Shown in pieces: positions 7,133 to 60,096 of a stretch of DNA of 64,000 nucleotides; position 1 is the stretch's first letter; the number at the start of each line of letters is the position of its first letter. Source of the stretch: Pseudomonadota bacterium (GTDB lineage Bacteria > Pseudomonadota > Alphaproteobacteria > G022571365); the NCBI GenBank assembly GCA_022571365.1, contig JACZXZ010000008.1:2262-66261 (forward strand), given 5' to 3'. Under the pieces are notes generated by a model, which worked only from the letters and a program-made list of their open reading frames with translations, was not told the DNA's origin and did no database searches. Position numbers and translations under genes: made by a program.

Positions 7133-7199
7133 GTGTTTCGAATAAGAAGCCGCAGTGTTGCGAATAAGGAGCCGCGGTGTTGCGAATAAAAGGAATCGC
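7133..7199. repeat. Three tandem ~22-bp repeats (GTGTTKCGAATAAGRAGCCGCR) in the znuA/zur divergent promoter region
   Basis: Read directly: gtgtttcgaataagaagccgca / gtgttgcgaataaggagccgcg / gtgttgcgaataaaaggaatcgc. Confidence 0.7.
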
Positions 7200-7214
7200 T
7201 ATTCTTCATAAATT

Positions 7215-7232
7215 GATATGATATATCATATC
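7215..7232. promoter_or_regulatory. Zur box: perfect 18-bp palindrome GATATGATA-TATCATATC
   Basis: AT-rich perfect inverted repeat in the intergenic region between the divergent znuA and zur-znuC-znuB genes. It matches the Fur-family/Zur operator architecture. Confidence 0.7.
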
Positions 7233-7346
7233 ATGAGTTGGCGACACAGTTCCTCCATGGTTGGCCTCGGCGTGGGGGCTGTGGGCCCTGCGATCCAGCC
7301 GGATTGGCCGGAGACGGACGAGGCACCGGTTTCATGAAGGGCGCTT

Positions 7347-11156: not shown

Positions 11157-11483
11157 GGCTTCCCCGGCGGCGTCTTGGCTTAAAGAAGCGAGCATAGAAG
11201 TGACGCCTCTCGCGCCAACAGGCAAGAGCCAATGGGCAAAGCCCAAGACGCTTGACCCCCCTGGTTCCGAGGCGGCCCGAGCCCCGCCGGATGGTTGTCC
11301 GGCTGCCTCACATCCCCTGAGCGGCGGAAGGTCTCGGATCACGGCGCCGTTCGTATAAAACACAGGATTTTTTTGTTATAAGTGACAATTTACATTTTTA
11401 ATCTTGATCTTTTCAAAAAATACACGACAATTACGCGATAAGGCGAATTCTACACGTTTAAAAGGTGCTTTAGCGGGCGCGCC

Positions 11484-17045: not shown

Positions 17046-17156
17046 ACGGATTTCCGGGGACCGGCCGGAGGCCGCCGCCAGGACCGCCGCATGGTAGCCG
17101 CCGCTCTGGACGGATTGCCACACAGCCCTGCGGGAGGAAACCTACCCCGCGCGGGT

Positions 17157-17903
17157 CTAGATGCGCTGGCCGCCCGGCAACGTCGTGAACCGCACCGGCA
17201 GAATACGCGTTTTCTTCACCCGTCCATCCGCCAGTTTCTCCACGAGGGTGAGTTGCTGCACGGCCAAGGGCGGACCGACGGGAATGACCAGCCTGCCGCC
17301 GGGCTTGAGCTGGTTGATGAGCGGTGGTGGTATGTGGTCCACCGCTTGGCGCATGATGACGGCGTCGAAGGGACCGCGGGCCTGCCAGCCAAAATAGCCA
17401 TCACCGACCCGCGTCTCGATGTTGTCATAGTCGAGACGAACGAGCCTTTCCATCGCCGTCTCCGCGACCGGTTCGATAAGTTCCACGATGTAGACGGTGT
17501 GCGCCAGCTCCGCCAGGACCGCCGCATGGTAGCCGCCGCCGATGCCGATCTCCAGGACCTTGTCGTCCGGGCCGATCCGGGCAAGATCGGTCATCAAGGC
17601 GACGATGTAGGGTTGGGAGACGGTCTGGCCGTGGCCGATGGGGAGCGGCTGGTTTAGGTAGGCGAGCGGTTCCAGCTTCTCGGGCACGAAGGCATGGCGG
17701 GGCACCTTGCCCATCACCTCCATGACCCGTGCGTCCAGGGTCTCCTTGCCGGTCACTGAGCTGGTGAGGCGCGCGTCGGCCTCGATTTCGGCCACCATAT
17801 ACTGGCGCAGGGCGGCGAAGTCGGCTTCGCTGCCGGACTCAGCCGGTCCGGCGAGCAGAACCAACATCACCGTCAAAAGGCAGGATCGTGTGGCGGTTGC
17901 CAT
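17157..17903 (-). CDS. pcm: Protein-L-isoaspartate O-methyltransferase (with signal peptide)
   Basis: 248 aa with the SAM-binding motifs VLEIGIGGGYHAAVLAE and GGRLVIPVG. The rest of the 949-aa reported ORF is antisense to the downstream plus-strand gene. Confidence 0.85.
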   Translation of the reverse strand: MATATRSCLLTVMLVLLAGPAESGSEADFAALRQYMVAEIEADARLTSSVTGKETLDARVMEVMGKVPRHAFVPEKLEPLAYLNQPLPIGHGQTVSQPYIVALMTDLARIGPDDKVLEIGIGGGYHAAVLAELAHTVYIVELIEPVAETAMERLVRLDYDNIETRVGDGYFGWQARGPFDAVIMRQAVDHIPPPLINQLKPGGRLVIPVGPPLAVQQLTLVEKLADGRVKKTRILPVRFTTLPGGQRI

Positions 17904-26341: not shown

Positions 26342-27085
26342 ATGAAAAAACGGAGTGGCAAGGCGGTGACGAAGCCAATCTGGACCGCCAAGGTGGTGAC
26401 CTTATTTCCGGAGATGTTCCCAGGACCGCTCGGCCATTCGCTCGCCGGCAGGGCGCTTACAGCCGGCATCTGGGCGTTGGAAACAGTGGACATTCGCGCC
26501 TTTGCACGCGATATATACGGCACCGTCGACGACGCTCCCTTCGGCGGCGGGCCGGGCATGGTGATGCGTCCCGACGTGGTCGACGCGGCCCTGGAGGCGG
26601 CCGTCGGCCCGAGCGGGTCCGAGCGGGCGGGGCCGGTAATTTACCTCACCCCGCGCGGTCGTCTGCTCGATCAGGCGCGGGTCAGCGAGCTGGCTCGGTT
26701 GCCGGGGGCGACCTTGCTTTGCGGCCGCTTCGAGGGAGTGGATGAGCGCGTTCTCGAAGCGTGGAAGGTGGAGGAATTAAGCCTCGGCGACTTCGTGCTT
26801 TCCGGCGGCGAGCCGGCGGCGATCGCCCTCGTCGATGCCTGTGTCAGGCTGTTGCCGGGCGTCGTCGGTGACGCCGCGGCGTTGAGGGAAGAGAGCTTTG
26901 AACAGGGATTGTTGGAATACCCCCACTACACCCGGCCTCAGCTCTGGCGGGGTCGGGCGGCGCCCGAGGTCTTGCTATCCGGGCACCATGAGAGGATTCG
27001 CGCCTGGCGACGCGACCGGGCCGAGGAGGCGACGCGCGCGCGGCGTCCGGACCTGTGGGCCCGCTACGTCGCGAACCAAAAGTAG
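26342..27085 (+). CDS. trmD: tRNA (guanine37-N1)-methyltransferase
   Basis: SPOUT-fold TrmD motifs ([39 protein letters not shown]). Confidence 0.9.
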
Positions 27086-31287: not shown

Positions 31288-32313
31288 ATGGGCTATAAGG
31301 TCGCGGTCGTGGGCGCCACCGGCAATGTCGGGCGCGAGATACTGACAACCCTTGCCGAGCGCGAGTTTCCCGCCGACGAGGTGGTGGCGCTGGCGTCGGT
31401 GGACTCGGTCGGCAAGGAGGTGTCTTTCGGCGATGACCGGACGCTTGAGGTCGGAGCGCTCGACGGCTTCGACTTTGAGGGCTTCGACATCGCGCTCTTT
31501 TCGCCCGGGGCCAAGGTTTCGGCCGTGCACGCTCCGCGCGCCGCCGCGGCCGGCTGCGTCGTCGTCGACAACACCTCCCATTTCCGCATGGAGCCCGACG
31601 TGCCGCTGGTGGTGCCCGAGGTCAACCCGGAGGCCATCGGCGGCTACGCCAAGCGCAACATCATCGCCAACCCGAACTGCTCGACGATCCAGATGGTCGT
31701 GGTGCTGAAGCCCCTCCACGATCTCGCGCGCATCAAGCGCGTGGTGGTCGCGACCTATCAGTCGGTCTCCGGCGCCGGCAGGGAGGCGATGGACGAGCTG
31801 TTCAACCAGACCCGGGCCATCTACGTCAATGATCCGATCAAGCGGGAGCAATTCACCAAACAGATGGCCTTCAACGTCATTCCCCATATCGATGATTTCC
31901 TGGGCGACGGTTCGACCCGGGAGGAATGGAAGATGGCGGTAGAGACCCAGAAAATCCTCGACCCCTCGATAAAGGTCGCGGCGACCTGCGTTCGTGTGCC
32001 GGTGTTCATCGGCCACGCCGAGGCGATCAATCTGGCGTTCGAGCGGCCGATCACGGCCGCGGCAGCGAGGGCGGCGCTCAAACAAGCGCCCGGGATCTCG
32101 GTCATCGACTACCGGGTCGACGAAGGCTATGTGACGCCGGTGGAGTGCGTGGGCGAGGATTCGGTCTATGTGGGCCGCATCCGCGTGGATAAGACCGTCA
32201 AGAACGGCCTTAGCCTGTGGGTGGTGGCCGACAACCTGCGCAAGGGCGCGGCCTTGAACGCCGTCCAGATCGCCGAGGAACTGATTCGCTCCTACATGAA
32301 AAAGGCCGCCTGA
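31288..32313 (+). CDS. asd: Aspartate-semialdehyde dehydrogenase
   Basis: MGYKVAVVGATGNVGRE and the active-site region IANPNCSTIQ. Confidence 0.9.
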   Translation: MGYKVAVVGATGNVGREILTTLAEREFPADEVVALASVDSVGKEVSFGDDRTLEVGALDGFDFEGFDIALFSPGAKVSAVHAPRAAAAGCVVVDNTSHFRMEPDVPLVVPEVNPEAIGGYAKRNIIANPNCSTIQMVVVLKPLHDLARIKRVVVATYQSVSGAGREAMDELFNQTRAIYVNDPIKREQFTKQMAFNVIPHIDDFLGDGSTREEWKMAVETQKILDPSIKVAATCVRVPVFIGHAEAINLAFERPITAAAARAALKQAPGISVIDYRVDEGYVTPVECVGEDSVYVGRIRVDKTVKNGLSLWVVADNLRKGAALNAVQIAEELIRSYMKKAA

Positions 32314-32360
32314 GCGGGCGGCCATCAAAAAAGGCCGCCTGAGCGGGTGCCATCATCGAG
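32305..32360. repeat. Tandem ~27-bp duplication spanning the asd stop codon; GC hairpin terminator-like
   Basis: aaaaaggccgcctgagcgggcggccatc / aaaaaaggccgcctgagcgggtgccatc. Each copy contains the GGCCGCC...GGCGGCC inverted repeat. Confidence 0.6.
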
Positions 32361-32452
32361 AAGGCTGACGCCTTCTTGACCCTCTGGCAAGCCGCGTTGT
32401 CCGGCTCGGGCCCCCGAGCGGCGGGCATCGCGGCGGCCTCGCGAAATGGGCT

Positions 32453-33091
32453 CTAGGGCAGAAGATCCCCGTCCAGGACCGCCACGCTCGCCAGTACGAT
32501 CGCGCCGAAGGCGATGATGATGATCCCGGAAATCCGGTTGATCCAGCGCATGCCGTGGGTGCCGATCCAGCCGCGGAACAGGCTGGCCCCGCCGCTCAGG
32601 ATCAGCCACCACAGGGCCGAGCCGAAGAAGACGCCCAGGACTAACGTCCAAAGCGCGGCCAGGTCCTGGCTCCCGCTCACCACTCCCAGCGCGGCGAAGA
32701 TCGCGGCGAAAGCGAGAATCGTGATCGGGTTGGTGAGGGTCAGCCCGAAGGTCGAGAAGAAGTTCGTGAGCAGGCTGTTTCCTGAAACGGGCGCGGCCTG
32801 TTTCCTGGGCCGGCTCAAAAAGGTCTTGAGACCGAGCGCGAACAGAATCGCTCCCCCGATGATGCGCAACCACATCTGGTGGCTGATAAGAAATCCTGAG
32901 ATCACGGTCACGCCGAAGGCGGCGATGAAGCCATAGATCGTGTCGGCGGTCGCGGCGCCCAGGCCGGAGACGAGGCCCGAGATGCGCCCTTCGGCCAGGG
33001 TCCGCTGGACGCAGAGCGCGCCGATGGGGCCCACGGGTGCCGCGATGGCAAGGCCGATGACGATCCCTTTGAAGAACAAAACGCCGATCAT
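32453..33091 (-). CDS. LysE/RhtB-family amino acid exporter
   Basis: Six-TM protein with the LysE-type N-terminus (MIGVLFFKGIVIGLAIAAPVGPIGALCVQRTL). Confidence 0.8.
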   Translation of the reverse strand: MIGVLFFKGIVIGLAIAAPVGPIGALCVQRTLAEGRISGLVSGLGAATADTIYGFIAAFGVTVISGFLISHQMWLRIIGGAILFALGLKTFLSRPRKQAAPVSGNSLLTNFFSTFGLTLTNPITILAFAAIFAALGVVSGSQDLAALWTLVLGVFFGSALWWLILSGGASLFRGWIGTHGMRWINRISGIIIIAFGAIVLASVAVLDGDLLP

Positions 33092-34411: not shown

Positions 34412-34547
34412 ACTTTATAGTCTCGATAATCCTACTTTATAGTCTCGATAATCCTGGGCGCCTTGCGTGGAGACAGGTAGGAGACGAGTGATAGTTTCGA
34501 TAATCTCGGCCGCCTTGCGTGGCGTACAGGTAGGAGACGAGTGAGTG
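34412..34547. repeat. Compound tandem repeats overlapping the RBS and start of the CitE-like gene
   Basis: A 22-bp ACTTTATAGTCTCGATAATCCT occurs twice. A ~33-bp CGCCTTGCGTGGMGWACAGGTAGGAGACGAGTGA then occurs twice. The second copy supplies the AGGAGA Shine-Dalgarno of the gene; the first is a duplicate upstream. Confidence 0.7.
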
Positions 34548-35567: not shown

Positions 35568-36638
35568 ATGACCAAGGCCGGAATGACCAAGGCCGGTTCG
35601 GGAAACTTCTTCGAGGATTTCAGGCTCGGCCAGGAAATCCGCCACGCCACCCCGCGCACGGTAACCCGCGGCGACGTCGCCCTGTACACGGGGCTCTATG
35701 GCCCGCGCTTCGCGATCCAGTCCTCCGACGCCTTCGCCCGCGCCGTCGGCCTGCCCGCGGCGCCGGTCGACGACCTTCTGGTGTTCCATATCGTCTTCGG
35801 CAAGACGGTGCCGGACATTTCCCTGAACTCCGTCGCCAACCTGGGCTACGCGGGCTGCCGCTTCGGCGCTCGGGTCTTCCCGGGCGACACGTTGAGCGCC
35901 ACCTCGCGGGTGATCGGCCTCAAGGAGAACGCCAATCGCAAGACCGGCATCGTCCATGTCCGTTCGACCGGCCTCAACCAGGACGGTGCGACGGTGGTGG
36001 ACTACATCCGCTGGGTCATGGTGCGCAAACGCGACCCGGAGGCGCCGGCGCCGGAGGCGGTGGCGCCCGAACTCGAGGAAGCGGTCGCGGCCGAGGACCT
36101 CCAGGTGCCCGAGGGCTTGGATCTTTCGGCTTACGATACCGGCCTGGCTGGCGCGCCCCATCTGTGGGACGACTACCAGGCCGGCGAGACCATCGACCAC
36201 GTCGACGGCATCACCATCGAAGAAGCCGAGCACATGATGGCGACCAGGCTGTACCAGAACACCGCCCGGGTCCATTTCAACCAGCATGCGGCGAAGGAGG
36301 GCCGCTTCGGTCGGCGCATCGTCTATGGCGGCCATATCATGAGCCTCGCCCGAACGCTCAGCTTCAACGGCCTGGCCAACGCCTGCTTCATTGCCGCGAT
36401 CAACGGCGGACGCCACCTCGCCCCCACCTTCGCCGGCGATACGATCTACGCCTGGACTGAAGTGTTGGACAAGATCGCGCTTGCCGGCCGCGGCGACATC
36501 GGGGCCCTCAGGTTGCGCACCGTCGCCACCAAGGACCACCCCTGCCCCGACTTCCCGCTCAAGGGCGAGGACGGCAAGGACCACCCGCAGGTGGTGCTCG
36601 CGCTCGACTACACGGTGCTCATGAAGCGGCGCGGGTGA
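35568..36638 (+). CDS. MaoC-family double hot-dog enoyl-CoA hydratase (mesaconyl-CoA / itaconyl-CoA hydratase-like)
   Basis: ~356 aa with two hot-dog halves. The start region contains a 15-bp tandem duplication that yields MTKAGMTKAG. The upstream 107 codons of the reported ORF are junk. Confidence 0.7.
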   Translation: MTKAGMTKAGSGNFFEDFRLGQEIRHATPRTVTRGDVALYTGLYGPRFAIQSSDAFARAVGLPAAPVDDLLVFHIVFGKTVPDISLNSVANLGYAGCRFGARVFPGDTLSATSRVIGLKENANRKTGIVHVRSTGLNQDGATVVDYIRWVMVRKRDPEAPAPEAVAPELEEAVAAEDLQVPEGLDLSAYDTGLAGAPHLWDDYQAGETIDHVDGITIEEAEHMMATRLYQNTARVHFNQHAAKEGRFGRRIVYGGHIMSLARTLSFNGLANACFIAAINGGRHLAPTFAGDTIYAWTEVLDKIALAGRGDIGALRLRTVATKDHPCPDFPLKGEDGKDHPQVVLALDYTVLMKRRG

Positions 36639-36989
36639 CTTATATGGGCGCAGAGCAAAGCGTACCACAAAGTCTGGTGGCGCCGCCGGCGGCCAGATGG
36701 TAAAAAAAGGGCGTCAGGACGCTGGCTTGGAAAGCCCGCGTTAGGTGTCCGGGCGGGACACCCCCTGACGCCCCTGGAGCCGGCCCGGCCCCTGGCACCG
36801 AAAGCGTGCCGGGCATTGGACCGCTTGAGCAAGACGACGTCCCTGGCGAGCCGGTGCCTTGCCGGCGGGCGGCCCCACGCCCTTTGCAGGGCGCTGCCTT
36901 TCCGGACGACCGGTCCCTGGCGCCGACCCGGGCCTTCGGCTCGCGCGCCCCGCCTCCGAGGAAGCCTGGGCGCCGGGTCCAGGCAGCGC

Positions 36990-37235
36990 CACCCGCGAAC
37001 GGATTTTGCTGCCTCGCCGGGAAGACGGTTTCCCCGAAGGAAAATCCGTCGGCCCTTTGGCGCGGACCCCGAGCCTCTGGCCGGGTGCCGGTGCTTCCGA
37101 GGAAGTACCGACCGCCAAGCCCGGGCAGCACCTCCCGCGAACGGGAGTTTCTGCTTTTGCGGGGCCGATGCTTTTCCCGAAGGAGAAGCCGTCGGCCCTG
37201 CGGCCAAGCCCGGCGCGTGCCTGAGACGCGGCCTT
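36990..37235. repeat. Two degenerate tandem ~120-bp repeat units, each containing a REP-like hairpin motif (GCTTTTCC-CGAA-GGARAAGC-CGTCGGCC), in a 760-bp non-coding GC-rich region
   Basis: Unit A ...gacggtttccccgaaggaaaatccgtcggccc... Unit B ...gatgcttttcccgaaggagaagccgtcggccc... A third copy of the motif lies inside sucA at 48891-48921. Confidence 0.65.
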
Positions 37236-37888
37236 CCGTCCAGCGGCCCGTCGGTCTCGCGACCAACGGATCGCCGGTGGCGAACATCGCGGTCTCCGCG
37301 GAAACCGCTCTGTCCCGGAGCTTTGCTTCCTTCGCCTGACGCCCCGAACCTCGAAAGGCCCGCAGCATCCTGCTCGGGAGCGCATCGCTCCGACGCTCTC
37401 GCATGCCGGGTATTATCCTAAACCGTTCAAGACAAGATGCAATAAAAAATGGAATAGAAATTCATTTTTCTGTGTATAACTTCATTAATATTACACATAT
37501 ACCTCACAGTTTATTCATAGATTTATACACAATATGTGACTTCAAAAGTAAAACCCGGGGGTCGACTCAGTATGTAGTAGGGTCGAGCGGCGGCACATAC
37601 ATGTGCGCTTTCGCGATCCCGATCGCAGCGATCACCGTCCGATTCCTGGGACGCGACCCGACATCCCGGGGCGCGGAAAGGGCCTCGCATTGTCATGTCC
37701 GCCGACGCGCGTCTCCAGGCCTGGACAGGCCCTTGGCCGGCGCCAGGCGTCATGAAGTTGACACCCATAGGTCGCCGGTCTACACCAATCGAGCGGGGCA
37801 AGATCGCTCGATCGATTCCGGGGCTTTGCGCGGGGCTTTGCACGGGAGATTTACACGGGAGACAGGCTTTGCGCGAGAGACATTGGTC

Positions 37889-38281
37889 ATGACGGCGGAG
37901 AACCGCCCGCTTTCGCCCCACCTCCAGATCTACCGGCCGCAGCTCACCTCGGTGCTTTCGATTCTGCACCGCCTCACCGGCATCGCGCTGGCGGCCGGCA
38001 CGCTGCTTCTGGTGTGGTGGCTGGTCGCCGTGGCCGCCGGCCCGGCGGCCTTCGAGACGGTGCAGGGATTCATAGGCTCATGGTTCGGCCGCGCTCTCCT
38101 CTTGGGCTGGTCCTACGCCTTGTTCTATCACCTGGCGAACGGCATTCGGCACCTGGCCTGGGACGCCGGCTGGGGCTTTGAGCTCAAGACGGTCTACCTC
38201 ACGGGCTGGATGGTGATCTGGGCCTCGGTCGCCCTCACCCTGCTGGCCTGGATCTTGGGCTACAGCATGAGGGGAGGGTGA
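37889..38281 (+). CDS. sdhC: Succinate dehydrogenase cytochrome b556 subunit
   Basis: 130 aa. The N-terminal RPLSPHLQIYRPQLTSVLSILHRLTG matches the conserved SdhC heme-ligand region. Confidence 0.85.
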   Translation: MTAENRPLSPHLQIYRPQLTSVLSILHRLTGIALAAGTLLLVWWLVAVAAGPAAFETVQGFIGSWFGRALLLGWSYALFYHLANGIRHLAWDAGWGFELKTVYLTGWMVIWASVALTLLAWILGYSMRGG

Positions 38282-38284
38282 GGG

Positions 38285-38680
38285 ATGGGTCAGCCCCGGC
38301 GAAGCCTGCGCGCATTCCCGGGCTGGGTCCGGGGCCTCGGCTCCGCCGGGGAGGGGACGGCCCACTGGTGGGCCCAGCGGCTCACCGCCATCGCGCTCGT
38401 GCCCTTGACGGTTTGGTTCGTCGCCTCGCTCGCGGCGCTCGCCGGAGCCGACCATGACGCCGTGACCCAGTGGCTGGCCTCGCCGCTGGTCGCGGTCCTC
38501 ATGGTGGTTCTGCTCGTCGCCACCTTTCACCATGCCCAGCTCGGTCTCCAGGTGGTGATCGAGGACTACGTCCACCATGAAGGCCTCAAAACCGTTGGCA
38601 TTGTTGTGGTCAAGTTCGCCGCGCTGGGGCTCGGGCTGGTGAGCGTGTTCGCGGCGCTCAAGGTCACGCTTGGAGGTTAG
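38285..38680 (+). CDS. sdhD: Succinate dehydrogenase hydrophobic membrane anchor subunit
   Basis: 131 aa, three TM helices, and HHAQLGLQVVIEDY is typical of SdhD. Confidence 0.85.
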   Translation: MGQPRRSLRAFPGWVRGLGSAGEGTAHWWAQRLTAIALVPLTVWFVASLAALAGADHDAVTQWLASPLVAVLMVVLLVATFHHAQLGLQVVIEDYVHHEGLKTVGIVVVKFAALGLGLVSVFAALKVTLGG

Positions 38681-41913: not shown

Positions 41914-43287
<1,374 letters not shown>

Positions 43288-43515
43288 GCGCTCTCGCGAA
43301 AGTCGGCGCCGCCTGATCAGGCCTCAGGGAGGCGGGCCGGGGCGAAGGCGTCCCTGGCCCGTCTTGACTCCGGAGTGCGCGGCTTGGCATGTTGCGCGCT
43401 CTGAGAAGGCTCATGCCATCACCGAAAAGGGGGTTTTCGGGAACGACGGGATTGGCCGCTCCCCAGGCGAGTGGTCAGGGAGATAGCTCCCCAAGCGAGT
43501 GGTCAGGGAGAGTAG

Positions 43516-44685
43516 ATGGACATCCACGAGTACCAGGCGAAGCAGATTCTTGCCAAATACGGCATCAACGTGCCCGTCGGCGACATCGCGTATCAAACCC
43601 ATGAAGCCGAACGCGTGGCGAAGTGGCTTGACGAAGACGTCATGGTCGTCAAGGCGCAGATCCACGCCGGCGACCGCGGCAAGGCCGGCGGCGTGAAGAT
43701 CGTCCGCTCGGTCCAGGAAGCGGTCGAGGCGGCCGATGACATGTTCGGCATGAGACTCGTCACGCCCCAGACCGGTCCCCAAGGCGAAAAGGTCCACCGG
43801 GTCTACATCGAGGCCGGGTGCGATATCGCTGACGAGCTTTATTTCTGCGTGCTCAACGGCCGCGATGCCAACGGCATCACCGTGATCGCCTCGACCGAAG
43901 GCGGCATGGAGATCGAAGAAGTCGCGGAGAAGACGCCGGAGAAGATCCTCAGGATCAACCTGGCGCCGGGGGTCGAGCTGCAGCCCCATCACGCCCGCAA
44001 GCTCTCCTACGACCTCGGGCTCAAGGGGAAGACGGCGCGGGCCGCAAGGAAGCTCATGATGAACGTGTTCCGGGCTTTCTATGACCTGGATGCCACCCTG
44101 ATCGAGATCAACCCACTGGCTCTGACCAATGCCGGCGACATCGTCGCCATCGACTGCAAGATGAGCTTCGACGACGACGCCCTCTACCGCCACAAGGACA
44201 TTGAAGAGCTCAGGGACGATGCCGAGATCGACCCCTTGGAGCTGGAGGCCGCGCGGCACGACCTCAACTACGTCAAGCTCACCGGCAATATCGGCCTCAT
44301 GGTCAACGGCGCCGGGCTGTCCATGGCGACCATGGACATCATCAAGCAATTTGGCGGCAAGCCGGCCAATTTCCTCGACGTGAGCGGCGCGGCCACGCCC
44401 GAGCGCGTGGCCGCGGCCTTCAAGCTCATTTATTCGGATCCCGACGTGAAGGGTATTCTAGTCAACATCTTCGGCGGCATGATGCGTTGCGATTCCATCG
44501 CCGAAGGTCTGGTAAGCGCGGCCCGCGAGGTGGGCTTGGGCAAGCCTCTGGTGGTGCGCCTGGAAGGCACCAATGTGAAATTGGGCCGGAAAATCCTTGA
44601 AGGGTCTGGCTTGCCGATCGAGTCTGTCAAGGGCATGGCGGAGGCTGCCGAGAAGATCGTCAATGCGGTGAAGAAAGCGGCGTAG
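43516..44685 (+). CDS. SucC-like NDP-forming acyl-CoA synthetase beta subunit, divergent paralog (malate thiokinase-like or other dicarboxylate-CoA ligase)
   Basis: ATP-grasp beta subunit with deviations from canonical SucC at conserved positions: [11 protein letters not shown] rather than [18 protein letters not shown] rather than [20 protein letters not shown] rather than DVGGGA. About two-thirds identity to the downstream copy. Confidence 0.75.
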
Positions 44686-45561
44686 ATGGCGGTTCTGATC
44701 ACGCCTGAGACCAAGGTCATATGTCAGGGTTTGACGGGTTCCCAGGGCACCTTCCATTCCGAGCAGGCGATCAAGTACGGCACCAACATGGTCGGCGGGG
44801 TGACGCCGGAAAAGGGTGCCACCAGCCATCTCGATCTCCCCGTTTTCGACACCGTGGCCGAGGCCGTGGCCAAGACGGGGGCCAACGCCTCGGGCGTCTT
44901 CGTACCCCCGGAGTTTGCGGCCGACGCCATCCTCGAAGCCGTGGAGGCGGGTCTGGATCTCGTGGTGTGCATCACCGACGGCATTCCCGTGCGCGACATG
45001 CAGCGGGTCAAGCGCGAAATGCACGGCCGCAAGACCCGGCTTGTCGGCCCCAACTGCTCCGGCGTCATCACCCCCGGGGTGGGCAAGATTGGAATCATGC
45101 CCGGCTATGTCCATTCGCCGGGCAAGATAGGAGTCATCTCGCGCTCGGGAACGCTCAGCTACGAGACCGCTATGCAGACCTCGAACTTGGGTCTCGGCCA
45201 ATCCACCGTCATCGGCATCGGCGGCGACCTCGTGAGCGGCACCAACTTCGTGGACGCCCTGGAGCTTTTCCTCGACGATCCCGATACCGCGGGCATCATC
45301 ATGATCGGTGAGATCGGCGGCACCATCGAGATCGAGGCCGCCGAGTTCGTCAAGTCCTGGAATAGGAAGAAGCCGGTCGCCGCCTTCATCGCGGGCGCGG
45401 CAGCGCCACCGGGACGCCGCCTGGGCCATGCCGGCGCCATCGTCTCCAGCGGCATGGAGACTGCCGAGGCGAAAAAGGAGGCGCTGCGGAGCGCGGGCGT
45501 CCGCGTCGCCGAGTCGATCGTCGAGATCGGGGAGAGCATGCGCGACGCCCTGAAAGGCTGA
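44686..45561 (+). CDS. SucD-like acyl-CoA synthetase alpha subunit, divergent paralog
   Basis: CoA-binding domain and catalytic His loop ([13 protein letters not shown]) retained, but many substitutions against the canonical SucD ([36 protein letters not shown]). Confidence 0.75.
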
Positions 45562-46519: not shown

Positions 46520-47689
46520 ATGAACGTTCACGAGTATCAGGCCAAACAGCTTCTCGCCAAGTACGGAGTCACCGTCCCGCGCGGCGGCGTCGCCTATACG
46601 CCGGCGGAGGCCGAGAAAGTGGCGCGCGATCTGGGCGGCCCGGGATGGGTCGTCAAGGCTCAGATTCACGCGGGCGGGCGCGGCAAGGCCGGGGGCATCA
46701 AGGTCGCGGGCAGTCTGGAGGAGGTGCGCGAATGCGCCCGCGGCATGCTCGGCATGACCCTCGTCACCCACCAGACCGGCCCGGCGGGCAAGGAGGTCAA
46801 GCGCGTCTATATCGAGAAGGGCTTGGACATTGAGCGCGAGCTCTATCTCGCCATTGTGGTTGACTGCGCCGCGCGCCGCGTCGCCGTCATGGCCATGAGC
46901 GAGGGCGGCGTGGAGATCGAGGAGGTCGCGGCGGGCAACCCCGAGAAAATCCTTAAAGCGACCATCGATCCCGCCATCGGCTTGGAGCCGTTTTATGCCC
47001 GCAAGCTCGCCTTCGGCCTTGGCCTCGAAGGCGGGCAGGTCAACGCCGCGGTCGGGTTCGTGGGCGCCATGTATGAGGCTTTCGTCGGCCTGGATGCCAG
47101 CCTCATCGAGATCAACCCGCTGGCGGTCACCGGAGCCGGCGAGCTGGTCGCGCTCGACGCCAAGATGAGCTTCGACGACGCCGCGCTCTTCCGCCACAAG
47201 GACATCGAGGAGCTCAGGGACGAGGACGAGGAGGACCGGACCGAGCTCGAGGCGACCCGCCACGACCTCAACTACGTCAAGCTCACCGGCAATATCGGCT
47301 GCATGGTAAACGGCGCCGGCCTGGCTATGGCGACCATGGACATCATCAAGCTCCATGGGGGCGAGCCGGCCAACTTCCTCGACGTTGGCGGCGGCGCCAC
47401 CAAGGAGCGGGTCACCATCGCGTTCAAGCTGATTCTCTCCGATTCCAATGTCGAGGGCATCCTGGTCAATATCTTCGGCGGCATCATGCGCTGCGACGTC
47501 ATCGCCGAGGGCATTGTCGGCGCGGCCCGCGAGGTGGGCTTGAGCAAGCCGCTGGTGGTCCGCCTGGAAGGCACCAATGTCGAGCTGGGCGAGAAAATCC
47601 TTAAAGAGTCCGGCCTGCCGATCACCTCGGCCGGGGATCTGGCGGACGCCGCCGAGAAGGTGGTGAGCGCCGTCCGGGAGGCGGCGTAG
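46520..47689 (+). CDS. sucC: Succinyl-CoA synthetase beta subunit (canonical copy)
   Basis: Canonical motifs [48 protein letters not shown]. Confidence 0.9.
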
Positions 47690-48565
47690 GTGGCCATTTT
47701 CGTCAGCGCTGAGACGCGGGTGCTCTGCCAGGGCTTCACCGGCGCCCAGGGCACCTTTCACTCCGAACAGACGATCGCCTACGGCACCAAGATGGTCGGC
47801 GGCGTCACCCCTGGCAAAGGCGGCGCCACCCACCTCGGCCTGCCGGTGTTCAACACCATGGCCGAGGCGGTCGCCGTCACCGGCGCGAACGCCACCGCGA
47901 TCTACGTGCCGCCGCCCTCGGCGGCAGACGCCATCTTGGAGGCGATCGACGCTGGGATCGAGCTTGCCGTCTGCATCACCGAGGGCATCCCCGTGCTCGA
48001 CATGGTGCGGGTCCGGCGCGCGCTCCAAGGCTCCGGCACACGGCTCATCGGGCCCAACTGTCCCGGGGTCATCACGCCGGAGGAGTGCAAGATCGGCATC
48101 ATGCCGGGCCATATCCATACCCGCGGCCGGATCGGCATCGTCTCGCGCTCCGGCACGCTCACCTATGAGGCGGTGGCCCAGACCACCGCCGCCGGGCTCG
48201 GCCAGTCGACCTGCGTGGGGATCGGCGGCGACCCGGTGGGCGGCACCGACTTCATCGACTGCCTGGAGGCGTTCCTGGCCGACGACGAGACCGAAGGCAT
48301 CATCATGATCGGCGAGATCGGCGGAAGCGCCGAGGAGGAGGCCGCCGAGTTCATCAAGCGGGCCAAGACCAGGAAGCCGGTGGTCGGTTTTATCGCCGGG
48401 GTGACCGCACCGCCGGGTCGTCGCATGGGCCATGCCGGCGCCATCATCTCGGGCGGCAAGGGCGGCGCCGGGGACAAGATCGAGGCTTTGCGGAGCGCCG
48501 GAGTCGTCGTCACCGAGTCGCCGGCGCGCCTCGGCGGCACCATGTTAGAAGTATTGAAGGACTGA
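47690..48565 (+). CDS. sucD: Succinyl-CoA synthetase alpha subunit (canonical copy)
   Basis: Canonical [66 protein letters not shown]. Confidence 0.9.
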
Positions 48566-48669
48566 GCCAGAGTTACTATCAATAGAGTACTGTCAATAAA
48601 GAACGGGCGCGGCCCTAAACCGCGCCGGAGGAAAGAACGGGCGCGGCCCTAAACCGCGCCGGAGGAGTC

Positions 48670-51546
<2,877 letters not shown>

Positions 51547-53165: not shown

Positions 53166-53194
53166 GATTCTATTCTTGGCACGGCCTCCGCCTC
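53166..53194. repeat. Downstream copy of the 29-bp direct repeat flanking the AT-rich Hint-domain cassette (partner at 53713-53741)
   Basis: gattctattcttggcacggcctccgcctc versus gattctattcttggcacggcgtccggctc (27/29 identical). On the minus strand both encode AVPRIES. Confidence 0.8.
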
Positions 53195-53248
53195 GCTGGA
53201 CTTCGTCGCCCCGGGCGAGCCGCTGTTTTCAACCTCCTCCGCCCTTAA

Positions 53249-53290
53249 TTATGCACCAAAAACACTTCCTTCTCATCCTTATCAGAAGAT
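53249..53290 (-). repeat. Truncated duplicate of the last 13 codons plus stop of the Hint-domain gene (SDKDEKEVFLVHN*)
   Basis: Minus-strand tctgataaggatgagaaggaagtgtttttggtgcataattaa duplicates 53296-53337, which encodes SDEDEKEVFLVHN then KIQ*. Confidence 0.8.
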
Positions 53291-53291
53291 C

Positions 53292-54500
53292 TTATTGTAT
53301 CTTATTGTGCACCAAAAACACTTCCTTCTCATCCTCATCAGAAACAAAATAATTATGTGTTCCGTTGACTGTTAGGTTGAAGACTTGTACTGCTTTCTCT
53401 ACTTTCTTTATACTTTTGATTTTGATGTGTGAGTTTCCAAGTACTTTGTCTCCAACTTTTAGCTCCGCTGCTTCTTTCCAAACATCATTACCAACAGCAA
53501 ATGGATGCGTACCAGTAACTTTAAGATTATCGTTAAGCAGCAAATATGAAGCTACTTCTATAGTAAATAATCTTGTTACTTTGCTGTTAACTTTTTTATT
53601 TGTATTAAAATCAAAGCTTTGTACTTCTTCTCCTTCTTCAATTTCTGCAATAGGCTTGAAGGTGTTGTCTGCCATTAAGACTTTGGTGTCAGCAGTAAAG
53701 CAACCTGGTGCCGATTCTATTCTTGGCACGGCGTCCGGCTCCTCCACCACCGGAGGCTCCTTGATGAGATCCGTGATCGGCGGGAAGAACGCACCAGTCA
53801 CGCCAGACTCATCATAGAATTTCCCCCAAGTACGCTGTTCCCACAGCGTAGTCGGGAGGGGAATGGTTGTTGGATAGAGCCCTTCATAAATCTCCCGCGC
53901 GATGTCGGGCGGCGCCGACGCCGCCGGCGTCGGCGCCGCGTCGGGCGCGGCCACGGTGGAGGCAAGCCCCGGGGTGTCGATGTTCACCGTCACGCCCTCG
54001 AGGTTGGAGATTGCGAGCGCGCCCGCGCGCAGGATCACGGTCGTCGCCCCGTCCGGCGCCACGAACAAGTCGAAGATCGTGCCGCGGACGCCGATGATGG
54101 CGACCGGCGTCCTGATCTCGTAGGACGCCGACGCCAGCGAGCCCGAGACGAACCGGAAGACGCCGACGGTCGCCGACATCACGACCTTGCTCACATTGGG
54201 ATCGGGATCGAACACGAAGGTATCGAGGACCAGCCGCGATTCCGGGCCGATCGACATCGTCGTCTCGTCCAGGAACAGGAGCTGGGTCGAGCTCTCCACT
54301 TCGGTCTCGATGGCTTCGTTGTGGAACAGCCGGTCGCCGATCACCAGCGTTCTCTCCTGCTCGGCCAGCGTGCCATGGACCAGGTTCACCACGGCCGCGG
54401 TGACGCCGATGCTCTCCTGCGCGGCGGCGCTCGCCGTCCAACCCGCGAGTATGAGGCCCGCGGCAAGCGCATATCGGACGGTCATGATCAGAACTCCCAT
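53292..54500 (-). CDS. Secreted FecR-like domain protein with a C-terminal Hint / bacterial-intein-like (BIL) domain
   Basis: Signal peptide (MTVRYALAAGLILAGWTASAAAQE), a FecR-type beta region (VAIIGVRGTIFDLF), a Pro/Ala/Thr linker, then a 133-aa Hint domain. The Hint domain begins at Cys (CFTADTKVLMADN), has block B TGTHPF (TxxH) and ends VFLVHN, then KIQ-stop. Its coding segment (~53249-53700) is AT-rich and Lys/Asn/Ile-rich, unlike the rest of the gene. Confidence 0.8.
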   Translation of the reverse strand: MGVLIMTVRYALAAGLILAGWTASAAAQESIGVTAAVVNLVHGTLAEQERTLVIGDRLFHNEAIETEVESSTQLLFLDETTMSIGPESRLVLDTFVFDPDPNVSKVVMSATVGVFRFVSGSLASASYEIRTPVAIIGVRGTIFDLFVAPDGATTVILRAGALAISNLEGVTVNIDTPGLASTVAAPDAAPTPAASAPPDIAREIYEGLYPTTIPLPTTLWEQRTWGKFYDESGVTGAFFPPITDLIKEPPVVEEPDAVPRIESAPGCFTADTKVLMADNTFKPIAEIEEGEEVQSFDFNTNKKVNSKVTRLFTIEVASYLLLNDNLKVTGTHPFAVGNDVWKEAAELKVGDKVLGNSHIKIKSIKKVEKAVQVFNLTVNGTHNYFVSDEDEKEVFLVHNKIQ

Positions 54501-55604: not shown

Positions 55605-55854
55605 AAAATCAAAGGCCTTCCCCCCTGTTGACTGTTTGACTGTCGCGCTCGCCCGGAGGCGCGAGCCTGTCCGACCTTTGCCCGCGGACGCACGAAACCC
55701 AGACGATATCGTCTGGGATGGGTCCGGCGCAAGAAAATCATTCCGCAAGAAAATTTATGGCGCGTAAACGATTGACGGCGCGTAAGCCCAAGGTCAAGGG
55801 CTACCGGCGCCATTAATCGGAATTAATACAATTAATACAATAACATAATACAAA

Positions 55855-57777
55855 TTAGGAAGCCTGTAGGGCGTGTGGATCGCGCCGCTCAGCCGCCCGG
55901 CGGCGGGTGCGGCGGCGGATGCGGCGGCGGGGTGGCAAACGCGGCTCTTGGTCGAACAGCTCGGCAAGCTTCTCCATCAGGGTGCCGCCGAGCTGGTCGG
56001 CGTCGACGATGGTCACCGCCCGTTGATAATAGCGGGTGACATCGTGGCCGATGCCGATGGCGACGAGCTCGATTGGCGAGTACGTCTCGATCCACGCGAT
56101 GACCTCGCGCAGATGGCGCTCCAGGTAGTTGCCGGGATTGACTGACAGGGTCGAGTCGTCGACCGGCGCGCCGTCCGAGATCACCATGAGGATGCGCCGC
56201 TCCTCGGGCCGTTCCAACAGGCGCTGGTGCGCCCACAGGAGCGCTTCGCCGTCGATGTTCTCCTTGAGGATTCCATCGCGCAGCATGAGACCCATGCGCT
56301 TGCGCGCGCGCCGCCACGGCGCGTCGGCGGCCTTGTAGACGATATGACGCAGGTCGTTGAGGCGTCCTGGATTCGGTGGCTTGCCCGCGGCCAGCCAGCG
56401 CTCGCGCGACTGGCCACCCTTCCAGGTGCGGGTGGTGAAGCCCAGAATCTCCACCTTGACGCCGCAGCGCTCCAGCGTGCGGGCGAGGATGTCGGCGCTC
56501 ATCGCCGCCACCGTGATCGGCCGGCCGCGCATCGAGCCGGAGTTGTCGATCAACAGCGTAACCACCGTGTCGCGGAACTCGATTTCCTTTTCGCGCTTGT
56601 AGGACAGCGGATAGACCGGGTTGACCACGACCCGGGCGAGCCGGCCGCTGTCTAGCAGCCCCTCCTCCAGATTGAACTCCCAGGCCCGCGACTGTTTGGC
56701 CAACAGACGCCGCTGCAGGCGGTTGGCGAGCCGGCCGATCACGCCCTGCAGGTGGGCGAGCTGCTGGTCGAGCTGGTGGCGCAGGCGGGACAGCTCCTGG
56801 GGGTCGCACAGTTCGTCGGCGTCGATGATCTCGTCGAACTCGGTGGTGAAAGCGTGATGGAACAGCTGGTTGGGCTCTGCCCCAAGGCTGGCCTCGGGTC
56901 TCAAGGGGCGGCCCGGCTGGGTCAGGGTGTCGTCGGCCGCGTCGGGCGCCAGCTGGGTCTCCAAATCCTCGCCGTCGCCGCCGTCCTCGCCGGTCGCCTC
57001 CAACGCCTCGGCGGTCGGCATGGCCTCGGCGTCCTCGTCCTCGCCGTCGCCGTCTTCGTCGAGGTCTTCGCCACCCGTTTGGCCCTCGCCGGGGCTTTCC
57101 ACATCATCCCGGTCGGTCTTCGCCGAGTCCTCGTCGCCGAGCTCGAGATCGTGGATCAACCGCCGCACCGCCCGGGCATAGGCGTCCTGGTCGTCGATGT
57201 GTTTTTTCAGGTCGGCTAGGTCCTTGCCGGCGCGGGATTCGAGAATCGGGCGCCAGAGATTCACCATCCGACGCGCGCTCTCGGGCGGCGATATGCCGAC
57301 GAGGCATTCGCGGGTCAGGAGGCCGATCACCTCGGCCAGCGGCGCGTCCTCGCGCTCCGTGATTTGGGCGTAGTCCCGGTTGCGGCAGCGCTCGTCGACC
57401 GCGGCCGCGAGATTCAAGGCGACGCCGGCCATGCGCCGGGCGCCCAGAGCCTCGCACCGGACCTGTTCGACCGCATGGAAGATCGCCCGGGCCGTGGCGC
57501 CAGCCGGCAGGCCTTTGGTGTGCAGCTCGGCGTCGTGATGGCGCAGCTTAAGCGCCATGGAATCGGCTTCCCCGCGGAGCTGGGAGACCTCGCCCACAGT
57601 CGGATCCCTGGACGGCGGCGGCAGGCGCGCCTCGGTGCCGACGAGCCCCGCTGGATCGGGCGTGAACGCGACGGTCACGTCGTCGCGCCCGGCGATCGCC
57701 CGCATCGCCGCTGCGGTAACGCGCCGGAAGCGCTCGACCGGGCTCTCGGCCTCGGCCGCGATCTGTCCGTTAAACAA
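55855..57777 (-). CDS. cobT: Cobaltochelatase CobT subunit-like protein (vWA domain)
   Basis: ~640 aa with an acidic central region and a C-terminal vWA/MIDAS motif ([11 protein letters not shown]...[10 protein letters not shown]), typical of aerobic CobT. Confidence 0.8.
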
Positions 57778-59844: not shown

Positions 59845-59876
59845 CCGCGTCCGTCCACCGCATCCGTCCGCCGCGA

Positions 59877-60046
59877 CCCCCGCCGGCCTTGAACGCCCCG
59901 CGATAGAGCTCCGACTGAGCTGCGCTCTGGTTCCGGGGCCTGCTTCGAGAGTCCGCCGCGGCCCCCGCCGGCCTTGAACGCCCCGCGATAGAGCTCCGAC
60001 TGAGCGGCGCTCTGGTTCCGGGGCCTGCTTCGAGAGTCCGGCGCGG
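59877..60046. repeat. Two tandem ~85-bp repeats in the convergent intergenic region between bolA and the tlyC/corB-family gene
   Basis: cccccgccggccttgaacgccccgcgatagagctccgactgagc[t/g]gcgctctggttccggggcctgcttcgagagtccg[c/g]cgcgg occurs twice, nearly identical. Confidence 0.8.
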
Positions 60047-60096
60047 CCGTGTCAGGGCCCTCAAACAGGCTCTAGGTCAAGAGGAGTCTCGTCGCT

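Follow-up and report, generated by a model that had tools for sequence, protein, structure and literature searches.

A hairpin-dense non-coding spacer preceding sdhC shares a 40-nt stem-loop with the coding sequence of sucA

During the analysis of a 64-kb stretch of DNA from an uncultured alphaproteobacterium (hereafter designated the window), we found that a gene-free stretch of 1.25 kb, which separates two central-metabolism operons, contains a non-coding, hairpin-dense spacer (36640–37400), and that one complete stem-loop of this spacer recurs in frame within sucA. The spacer carries one old tandem duplication only, the patch shared with sucA is bordered by the base of the hairpin, and the sequence searched holds no further copies. 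The sharing is real, and it has the appearance of one local event of copying. Collectively, a non-coding hairpin spacer with a passive role, one local copying of 40 nt into sucA, and an ordinary AT-rich island next to the spacer make up the reading that we tentatively prefer, although as a whole it falls a little short of an even chance.

The long interval without genes runs from the stop codon of a MaoC-type mesaconyl-CoA hydratase gene (35583–36638, plus strand; 351/356-aa, PF19315 and PF01575, in all population contigs) to the ATG of sdhC (37889–38281, plus strand), whose exact 130-aa product is the SDH cytochrome b556 subunit (MCH7540102.1). The sdh genes do not adjoin the suc cluster in the closest relatives, whose SucA is about 70% identical. 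The GC content at 36650–37400 is 0.61–0.80 in 100-nt steps. An earlier note on this DNA had seen no credible ORF here, in agreement with the codon-phase GC, which is flat in six frames of six (0.68–0.72 at positions 1/2/3), as compared with 0.66/0.46/0.89 in the neighbouring genes including the MaoC gene. Moreover, the maximum periodicity amplitude in 150-nt windows of the spacer is 0.18, so that no window reaches the lowest coding amplitude (genes, at least 0.22; mean, 0.44). Among 14 population variants of 95–99% identity, the spacer differs by indels of 1, 2, 8, 9, 14, 18, and 36 bp, some of them frameshifting. A 254-aa minus-strand ORF, predicted by gene callers in every assembly, was ruled out as a protein-coding gene by the flat codon-position GC, by frameshifts (+1, +1, −1, +2, and −1 nt between strains), by a search of 5.8 billion proteins whose matches were all frameshift variants of this locus from the same species, and by Pfam, which returned nothing at E up to 1 for six long ORF translations, one per frame. 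The SNPs in this ORF fall on codon positions 1/2/3 in the numbers 36/19/32, and the consistent annotation of a spurious 254-aa protein by gene callers stands as a warning. Rfam 15 covariance models (E up to 1, 36000–38500) gave nothing, a tRNA/tmRNA scan of the spacer found none, and the spacer showed no similarity to plasmid and phage collections. Nucleotide diversity is 0.0245 in the spacer versus 0.0145 at four-fold degenerate sites, and the spacer appears to evolve at an about neutral rate.

The spacer is built from many densely packed GC-rich stem-loops, with folding z scores against shuffled sequence of −5.5 on the plus strand and −7.05 on the minus strand, compared with −0.96 and −2.21, respectively, for an sdhA coding control. 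At 36702–36772 on the minus strand (−47.3 kcal/mol; z, −6.98), a branched GC stem (36710–36772), composed of a 9-bp closing stem and two inner hairpins, is followed by T7 (36708–36702); a GC-rich stem leading immediately into a U-run is the arrangement by which an intrinsic (Rho-independent) terminator is predicted. Runs of at least six A or T number 12 in the whole 64 kb, and the one at 36702–36708 directly adjoins the stem; a T-run is retained there in all strains, while the adjacent 36689–36701 is replaced or expanded. This element, branched and with a loop of more than 8 nt, was not returned by a simple consensus terminator scan. It is clear by sequence as a minus-strand terminator, with a putative function, and it would halt minus-strand transcription that proceeds from the AT-rich island in the direction of mch. 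On the plus strand, the consensus scan found two terminator-like sites (1.5 expected), no commoner than in shuffled sequence; one of those flagged, a weak candidate in the second repeat unit, consists of the hairpin CTCCCG-CGAA-CGGGAG with a T-rich tail (37132–37160). The role of the spacer is most likely passive, in that it would set the mcl-mch operon apart from the control region of sdhCDAB, its hairpins possibly serving in termination and RNA-end protection; a terminator or insulator function is what we infer from the sequence. A similar GC hairpin with A-runs on either side is found in another spacer (32313–32453), which lies between a plus-strand ORF and a minus-strand ORF.

The duplication within the spacer consists of an older, degenerate unit 1 (36952–37057, plus strand) and a unit 2 (37093–37200, plus strand), detected both by repeat families (D1, D2, and D11, spaced 141–143 nt) and by local alignment (score 74 over 106–108 nt). 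The two degenerate tandem units perceived earlier are thus present, but not at the size of about 120 bp then given, since the period is 142–143 nt and the repeated part about 107 nt, with about 75% identity. Each unit terminates in a long stem-loop, and local alignment revealed no further degenerate units in the spacer, its flanks, or the sdhC leader. Useless DNA is usually deleted by bacteria; an internal duplication that is 25% diverged indicates long persistence of this 760-bp spacer and hints at some function.

The stem-loop of unit 2 (37159–37200, plus strand; stem of 17–18 bp, −30.2 kcal/mol; z, −5.5) is the closest partner of the copy in sucA (48881–48919, plus strand), with 37 of 39 positions identical, and in strains L013, L015, and L018 the 31-nt core of unit 2 is identical to that of sucA. 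The stem-loop of unit 1 (37016–37057, plus strand; −18.3 kcal/mol; z, −1.96; 65.4 bits with covariance model R1) is degenerate, being 82% identical to the sucA copy and differing at 4 of the 31 positions of the motif. The sucA copy folds with −22 kcal/mol and lies in frame in the N-terminal linker (codons 71–84, GGVDAFPEGKAVGR), where the patch codes for GVDAFPEGKAVG within a hypervariable linker of ordinary length; it is also found in strain L012 (97% nucleotide identity), and SucA is 958 aa long in all strains. Translation and the SucA alignment bear out the earlier proposal of an in-frame copy coding for DAFPEGKAVG in the variable linker, with its position corrected from 48891–48921 to 48889–48919 and the full patch extending over 48881–48919. 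In size the shared element exceeds the earlier description: it is a stem-loop that spans about 40 nt, has 17–18 pairs, and coincides at its base with the patch borders. A hairpin does occur in all three copies, but the perfect 8-bp stem GCTTTTCC-CGAA-GGAAAAGC, previously ascribed to each unit, is confined within the window to sucA; the stem of unit 2 carries GGAGAAGC, a G·T pair, and is perfect in L013, L015, and L018. With up to 3 mismatches, the 31-mer has 2 matches in the window versus 0 expected, and an 18-nt degenerate core has 3 versus 0.33 expected. Pairing in the stem is kept across the copies in 86% of cells, two pairs being changed on both sides, and the hairpin patch is conserved no more highly than the rest of the spacer (3 of 40 sites variable). 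The similarity stops at 39–40 nt, and the flanks are unrelated (53% identity, the chance level). The possibility that the sucA/spacer pair represents the repeats of a diversity-generating retroelement was rejected, the differences being C/T and G/A instead of adenine-specific and no RT being found among the neighbouring genes.

The absence of the FPEGK segment from all SucA relatives compared, the linkers of which are Ala/Pro/Gly-rich, together with the two diverged copies at homologous positions in the spacer, suggests that the copying proceeded from the spacer to sucA. Unit 2 is 95–100% identical to sucA and thus closer to it than unit 1 is to unit 2 (about 75–80%), indicating that the copying was probably later than the duplication. 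Presumably, one complete unit-2 stem-loop was copied once, locally, over 11.7 kb into the length-tolerant linker at the N-terminus of the 2-oxoglutarate dehydrogenase E1 gene, whereby 13 codons of sucA would have been added or replaced in frame. The likely mechanism is short-patch ectopic copying, through either templated repair or gene conversion; ectopic conversion of short patches and templated insertion in the course of repair are of general occurrence as mechanisms. A second case in the window is an exact, non-palindromic patch of 30 nt in a methyltransferase gene (17510–17539), identical to 17075–17104 in the downstream spacer of the same gene, which points to generic short-patch copying in this genome. 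As in short-patch conversion, both cases (37159/48881 and 17075/17510) are sharp-bordered patches of 30–40 nt that a gene has in common with a spacer close by, equally oriented and with unrelated flanks. Unlike the product of a generic process of this kind, however, the sucA patch comprises a whole hairpin, and no junction microhomology stands out; borders at the base of a 17–18-bp hairpin are not expected of a random templated patch, so that a hairpin-dependent step may be involved.

The principal alternative, which was also the proposal of the earlier note (a REP-like hairpin family able to invade coding sequence), is that the 40-nt stem-loop belongs to a REP/MITE-like mobile palindromic family that transposes in hairpin form and is able to insert in frame into coding sequence, as Rickettsia palindromic elements (RPEs) do. 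We regard this as unlikely, and a REP-like family is not supported by the sequence searched, the idea being unproven rather than refuted. In its favour, the patch comprises precisely one imperfect palindrome in its entirety, the copies occupy two independent loci within 12 kb of each other, of which that in sucA is in frame and in a permissive linker, the retained and doubly changed stem pairs noted above would suit such a family, and a documented precedent for small palindromic elements inserted in frame is provided by RPEs (PMC10969869). The borders at the hairpin base keep a hairpin-dependent mechanism alive, and two loci within 12 kb would also be compatible with a dense genome-wide family. 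On the other hand, a pattern search allowing up to 7 mismatches in 31 and the covariance model R1, applied to the 64-kb window, about 14 kb of further sequence of the species, strain variants, and two relatives (the searched part being about 2% of a typical genome), gave three copies at two loci, two of the three forming one tandem pair, and the next best match to the model scored 17.7 bits versus 65–68 for true copies. A motif scan of JGI metagenome contigs found none, although it also missed L014, a JGI-sample contig with a matching motif, and a scan of 185,579 GTDB species genomes gave a single, unrelated match; the source species is represented in neither collection. A six-frame peptide query of the motif against a protein collection, which missed SucA itself, gave no candidate. 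A look-alike at 26578–26609 was dismissed as ordinary TrmD coding sequence (z, −1.6). In REPs and REPINs, RAYT transposases mobilise repetitive extragenic palindromes (PMC3337134, PMC3116915), and no transposase, including the RAYT/Y1 type, was seen among the Pfam-annotated genes near the locus. The non-palindromic 30-nt patch, moreover, argues that short copying occurs in this genome without a hairpin.

In several respects the element does resemble known palindromes. Like REP/REPIN sequences, it is an imperfect palindrome, GC-rich and about 40 nt long, which lies in intergenic DNA downstream of a gene and within a hairpin-rich cluster, and with its 17–18-bp stem (−30.2 kcal/mol) it agrees with the short, stem-loop-forming palindromes (about 20–40 nt) that REPs are. 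REPs are, however, dispersed in tens to hundreds, as against the three copies in the searched sequence, and are extragenic, whereas one of the three copies here lies in frame inside sucA. A REPIN is formed by two REPs in inverted orientation with a short spacer between them (PMC3337134), whereas the intergenic pair here is direct, 143 nt apart, part of a tandem duplication, and devoid of the GTAG head. Neither a target-site duplication at the borders nor terminal inverted repeats past the stem were found, the similarity ending at 39–40 nt. As with RPEs and intragenic MITEs (PMC10969869), the palindrome occurs in non-coding DNA and, in addition, in frame at a permissive site of a housekeeping gene, namely the 39-nt patch in codons 71–84 of the hypervariable sucA linker; RPEs, by contrast, are about 100–150 bp in length and form multi-copy families with many in-frame insertions per genome (PMC10969869), as opposed to the single patch of 39–40 nt here. 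The spacer as a whole may be compared with the BIME clusters of intergenic DNA, being a long run of GC-rich stem-loops at the 3′-end of an operon, for which termination or mRNA 3′-end protection is plausible. The BIMEs of E. coli, located between operons, combine a few REP types, alternately oriented, into mosaics; here, in contrast, nearly each hairpin differs in sequence and one 107-nt segment is repeated. Should the 40-nt hairpin prove to exist in many copies, it would represent a very small palindromic element able to become protein sequence in this lineage; it would be a free-living counterpart of RPEs and would illustrate how a linker can evolve out of non-coding hairpins. As a unique occurrence, which we consider likelier, it would demonstrate, together with the 30-nt patch, that short patches are copied between genes and the spacers close to them in this genome, which matters less than a family; neither outcome touches a long-standing open question.

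A different view of the spacer, that the GC-rich stretch is a structured non-coding RNA gene of about 700 nt on the minus strand, running from the AT-rich island to the terminator at 36702–36772 and possibly coupling sdh and suc expression as a trans-antisense regulator, appears quite improbable to us. It is consistent with the terminator-like stem followed by T7 on the minus strand, with the AT-rich island at the opposite end (elsewhere in the window such islands adjoin gene starts), with the minus-strand fold (z, −7.05), with the CGAA loops, which become UUCG tetraloops on that strand, and with the complementarity of the unit-2 hairpin to sucA mRNA (37–39 of 40 positions). The RNAalifold energy also differs between the strands (−441.8 minus versus −377.9 plus), but the sdhA coding control shows the same asymmetry (−389.6 versus −355.6), and strand assignment by folding energy was discarded. 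Similarly, a hand count from RNAalifold pair tables gave kept-to-broken ratios of about 34:10 on the minus strand versus about 20:21 on the plus strand; in an unbiased count over helices common to both strand folds, the asymmetry vanished (pair-preserving SNPs, 9 minus-only versus 5 plus-only, not significant; G·U counts, 7 versus 4; in the union of helices, 38 minus-only versus 26 plus-only), and this criterion too was abandoned. Furthermore, the diversity of the spacer is not under the synonymous-site level, the hairpin patch is no better conserved than the rest, a consensus promoter scan of both strands found none, and no Rfam family matched. Near-perfect complementarity over 40 nt is unlike that of known trans-acting sRNAs, and recent copying is the simpler explanation. 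That a minus-strand RNA of about 700 nt would pair with sucA mRNA at codons 71–84 and couple succinate dehydrogenase with 2-oxoglutarate dehydrogenase, the 40-mer being kept by selection and not by accident, is a highly improbable extension. The least probable reading of all is that the spacer represents a decayed protein gene once located between mch and sdhC, with the AT-rich island as its old promoter and the element at 36.7 kb as its old terminator. The 254-aa ORF is indeed called in all assemblies, and its ATG at 37404 adjoins the island, with the minus-strand terminator-like element at the far end; this ORF, however, reads through that element, leftover codon periodicity is lacking even per 150 nt (0.18 versus at least 0.22), the six-frame ORF translations have no Pfam match at E up to 1, the search of 5.8 billion proteins with the minus-strand ORF gave this locus alone, and the spacer GC of 70–80% exceeds the coding average. 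As for the island itself (37400–37560; GC, 0.23–0.31), a sharply AT-rich stretch of about 150 bp had been noticed after the repeat block, and GC does fall to 0.25–0.31 at 37400–37550. We consider it hardly probable that this island (37406–37558) arose by insertion of a small foreign or MITE-like element, or that it serves as a dedicated target of an H-NS/MucR-type silencer. The very sharp GC borders, a 10-nt inverted repeat exactly at both edges (37406–37415/37549–37558), a 20-nt inverted repeat inside (37471–37490/37512–37531), and the distance of 330 nt from the sdhC start, by which the island is not simply a core promoter, would fit such a view, but an inverted repeat that matches at 9/10 positions within 221 nt is near chance (about 0.7 expected by our own estimate), there is no target-site duplication, the window contains no second copy, plasmid and phage collections gave no match, and a 24-mer is absent from JGI metagenomes. 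The island is present in 14 of 14 strains, and these variants show a diversity in it no lower than at synonymous sites. Since sharp AT-rich islands, which share no common motif, recur elsewhere in the window, in several intergenic regions, two of these islands adjoining start codons of divergent genes, the favoured view is that the island is a candidate ordinary promoter or regulatory island.

Between the island and sdhC, the leader is palindrome-rich, as the earlier note had also described. The best candidate for the sdhC promoter, recognized by eye and weak, is TTGACA-N17-TACACC at 37758–37786 (plus strand), which the consensus promoter scan did not return. It is followed on the same strand by a stem-loop read from the sequence, ATCGAGCG-N9-CGCTCGAT (37788–37812), and by tandem GGGGCTTTGC repeats of 12–13 nt found by repeat search (37819–37880). 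The copy number of these repeats is polymorphic between strains, with deletions of 13 nt in L014 and 26 nt in L013.

The interval between the mesaconyl-CoA hydratase gene (mch, MaoC-type; stop at 36638) and sdhC (ATG at 37889) belongs to an uncultured alphaproteobacterial MAG, whose SdhC is deposited as NCBI MCH7540102.1 under the label "Pseudomonadota bacterium", and lies in the gene order malyl-CoA-lyase-like gene, mch, interval, sdhCDAB, mdh, two sucCD pairs, and sucAB. The sdhC-region locus was also found in 14 independent metagenome assemblies with 95–99% nucleotide identity, and the next closest SucA proteins, from Rhodospirillales-like MAGs, are only ~70% identical; therefore, the comparative evidence is population-level only. 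GC content per 100 nt is 0.61–0.80 over 36650–37400 and then falls to 0.25–0.31 at 37400–37550, in agreement with the earlier note, which described a GC-rich block followed by a sharp AT island.

The interval 36640–37400 is non-coding, as that note had also judged from the lack of a credible ORF. GC at codon positions 1/2/3 is flat in all frames (0.68–0.72, vs ~0.66/0.46/0.89 in the neighbouring genes), and the 14 variants differ in 36640–37404 by indels of +1, +1, −1, +2, −1, −18, +8/9/14, and +36 nt, including frameshifting ones. Gene callers report a 254-aa minus-strand ORF in every assembly, and public assemblies annotate 36640–37404 (minus strand) as a hypothetical protein of 221–270 aa, the length of which differs through frameshifts. 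This ORF has no Pfam domain, matches among 5.8 billion proteins only same-locus frameshift variants of itself, and carries 36/19/32 SNPs over its three codon positions; the annotation is spurious, the underlying DNA being GC-rich and non-coding. A recently frameshifted pseudogene is disfavoured by the codon-phase amplitude in 150-nt windows, which reaches at most 0.18 in the spacer, vs at least 0.22 (mean 0.44) in coding DNA. Neither Rfam (E up to 1) nor ARAGORN gave a match in the interval.

The spacer folds at −413.5 kcal/mol on the plus strand (z −5.5 against dinucleotide shuffles) and at −455.9 kcal/mol on the minus strand (z −7.05), whereas a 771-nt sdhA control reached z values of only −0.96 and −2.21, indicating that the spacer is truly made up of densely packed local stem-loops. 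The control, too, folds better on the minus strand, by 34 kcal/mol, and the strand asymmetry of the spacer is therefore compositional and gives no evidence for a one-strand RNA. RNAalifold on the population alignment apparently favoured the minus strand. Among helices predicted on both reference strands, pairing was kept only on the minus strand in 9 variants and only on the plus strand in 5; the union of helices gave 38 minus-only vs 26 plus-only pair-preserving variants, and G·U pairs numbered 7 vs 4, none of these differences being significant. A structured antisense RNA from the spacer is possible but unsupported. Nucleotide diversity (π) is 0.0245 in the spacer, not lower than the 0.0145 measured at four-fold degenerate positions in the genes on either side, and we conclude that the spacer is hairpin-rich but evolves roughly neutrally.

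The clearest transcription signal is on the minus strand, where a branched GC-rich stem (36710–36772; −47.3 kcal/mol, z −6.98) is followed directly by T7 (36708–36702); A-runs or T-runs of at least six are rare, with only 12 in 64 kb. A similar GC hairpin with flanking A-runs lies in the spacer 32313–32453, which separates a plus-strand ORF from one on the minus strand. Given this terminator-like signal, transcription presumably runs, or once ran, from the right in the direction of mch, stopping at the predicted terminator at 36.7 kb. A T-run is kept in all strains, and in several of them the 12 nt immediately past it have been exchanged or lengthened, as expected for a dead zone separating two convergent 3′ ends. 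The two terminator-like sites on the plus strand (37132–37147 and 37307–37321) represent no excess over the 1.5 expected in shuffles. A consensus scan found no sigma-70 promoter on either strand; the best candidate for sdhC, picked by eye, would be TTGACA-N17-TACACC at 37758–37786.

The AT island is present in all strains, with conservation no higher than that of synonymous sites. It contains a 20-nt inverted repeat and has at its edges a 10-nt inverted repeat, which we estimate to be about chance level; it matched nothing in the plasmid, phage, and JGI collections. Other sharp AT islands occur at 7133–7275, 11317–11487 (filling a divergent intergenic region up to both start codons), and 55764–55896, and a weaker one at 48539–48621 just before sucA, with no motif common to those in the window. 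From these features, we infer that the sdh AT island is an ordinary AT-rich regulatory island. Possibly, it fires in both directions, and the 36.7-kb minus-strand terminator would shield mch from antisense transcription.

Within the GC-rich part, the spacer carries an old tandem duplication (36952–37057 and 37093–37200) with ~75% identity; no third degenerate unit was detectable in the flanks or the sdhC leader. The earlier note was right about the two units, the length of which it gave as ~120 bp; the period is 142–143 nt, of which ~107 nt is repeated. A 31-nt hairpin core occurs three times (0 expected by chance), at 37024–37054 in unit 1 (4 mismatches), at 37167–37197 in unit 2 (1 mismatch), and at 48889–48919 in sucA (0 mismatches). 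The perfect 8-bp stem ascribed to each unit is confined in the window to the sucA copy, and three other strains (L013, L015, and L018) also have it in unit 2. The original observation was largely real and carefully described; what needed correction was the length of the units, which stems are perfect, and the position of the sucA copy, by 2 nt.

Sensitive self-comparison limited the similarity between spacer and sucA to 37159–37197 and 48881–48919 (37/39), with flanks at chance level, and folding showed the shared patch to be exactly one long stem-loop of 17–18 pairs (−30.2 kcal/mol, z −5.5, in unit 2; −22 kcal/mol in sucA). When the three copies are compared together with their strain variants, pairing is kept in 86% of cells and two pairs are altered on both sides, which is weak evidence for structural selection, there being only three independent copies. 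Unit 2 and the sucA copy are 95–100% identical vs ~75–80% between the tandem units; therefore, the link between sucA and unit 2 is much younger than the duplication, or gene conversion keeps it. The sucA-type bases in unit 2, T at 37165 in one strain (L014) and A at 37185 in L013, L015, and L018, are compatible with gene conversion. At the protein level, the patch reads GVDAFPEGKAVG and falls in the SucA linker that joins the N-terminal domain to the catalytic core. Comparison with 43 relatives, as the note had proposed, showed this linker to be hypervariable in length and Ala/Pro/Gly-rich, the one here being of ordinary length; FPEGK was found in none of the 43. The most parsimonious reading of these sequences would be a single copying event, by which one spacer stem-loop entered the sucA linker in frame, replacing or adding 13 codons.

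The earlier note had proposed instead a REP-like family able to invade coding sequence, which is possible but unsupported. A search by pattern and covariance model over the window, further loci of the species, and two relatives, narrower than the genome-wide one that the note suggested, returned the three copies only, with no fourth at up to 7 mismatches in 31. Covariance model R1, built from the copies, scored them at 65–68 bits; next came 24.9 bits for the reverse strand of these copies, and all further hits had ≤17.7 bits. A degenerate 23-nt pattern gave one unrelated match in the 185,579 species genomes of GTDB and no match in metagenome contigs from JGI, both collections lacking the source species. 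A perfect 13–14-bp palindrome at 53909–53939, GCGGCGCCGACGC...GCGTCGGCGCCGC, resembles the 40-nt hairpin in its stem-base letters (17 bits with R1, E ~0.09), probably by chance. Among the features defining REPs and REPINs, namely palindrome, inverted-pair arrangement, extragenic location, copy number, and association with RAYT (PMC3337134, PMC3116915), the shared hairpin has the palindrome, but its copies do not form inverted pairs and one lies inside sucA. In-frame insertion is common to it and the Rickettsia palindromic elements (PMC10969869), whereas their size and multi-copy family are not matched. Moreover, self-comparison revealed an exact 30-nt direct repeat, CCGCCAGGACCGCCGCATGGTAGCCGCCGC, with sharp borders and no hairpin, one copy (17510–17539) lying inside a minus-strand methyltransferase-like gene, where it encodes the conserved-looking GGGYHAAVLA, and the other (17075–17104) in the spacer just downstream. 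Thus, short-patch copying between a gene and a nearby spacer takes place in this genome in the absence of a palindrome, which makes a mobile element less necessary as an explanation; such copying leaves unexplained why the sucA patch is a whole hairpin.

Intergenic tandem duplications of 54 nt (34439–34544), 30 nt (43458–43515), 35 nt (48598–48666), and 98 nt (59866–60048) were also observed, three of the four directly upstream of the start codons of sucA, sucC, and mcl. The 35-nt unit before sucA comprises a hairpin and the ribosome-binding region and is single-copy in L012, a strain with 97% nucleotide identity. In the sdhC leader (37819–37880), 12–13-nt repeats differ in copy number among strains, with deletions of 13 and 26 nt, and thereby form a small VNTR located after the putative promoter and before the start codon. 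The two tandem sucC-sucD-like pairs (43516–45561 and 46520–48565; 75.7% nucleotide identity), with an ACT-domain gene between them, recur in L016, a relative with ~70% SucA identity, and one pair may encode a malate or other acyl-CoA thiokinase. Between DUF6494 and mdh, some strains carry a BglII-type restriction-modification pair (N6_N4 methyltransferase and Endonuc-BglII; L012 1856–3330, L018 9374–10848, and L004 10410–11255), which is absent from the corresponding site of the window strain (~41924–42076). Finally, a 500-bp AT-rich segment at 53166–53741 (GC down to 0.23), bounded by 29-nt direct repeats (53166–53194 and 53713–53741) and holding an internal 44-nt repeat, looks like an insertion or variable island; the adjoining 53.9–55.8 kb is 91% identical to L012, vs 97% elsewhere.
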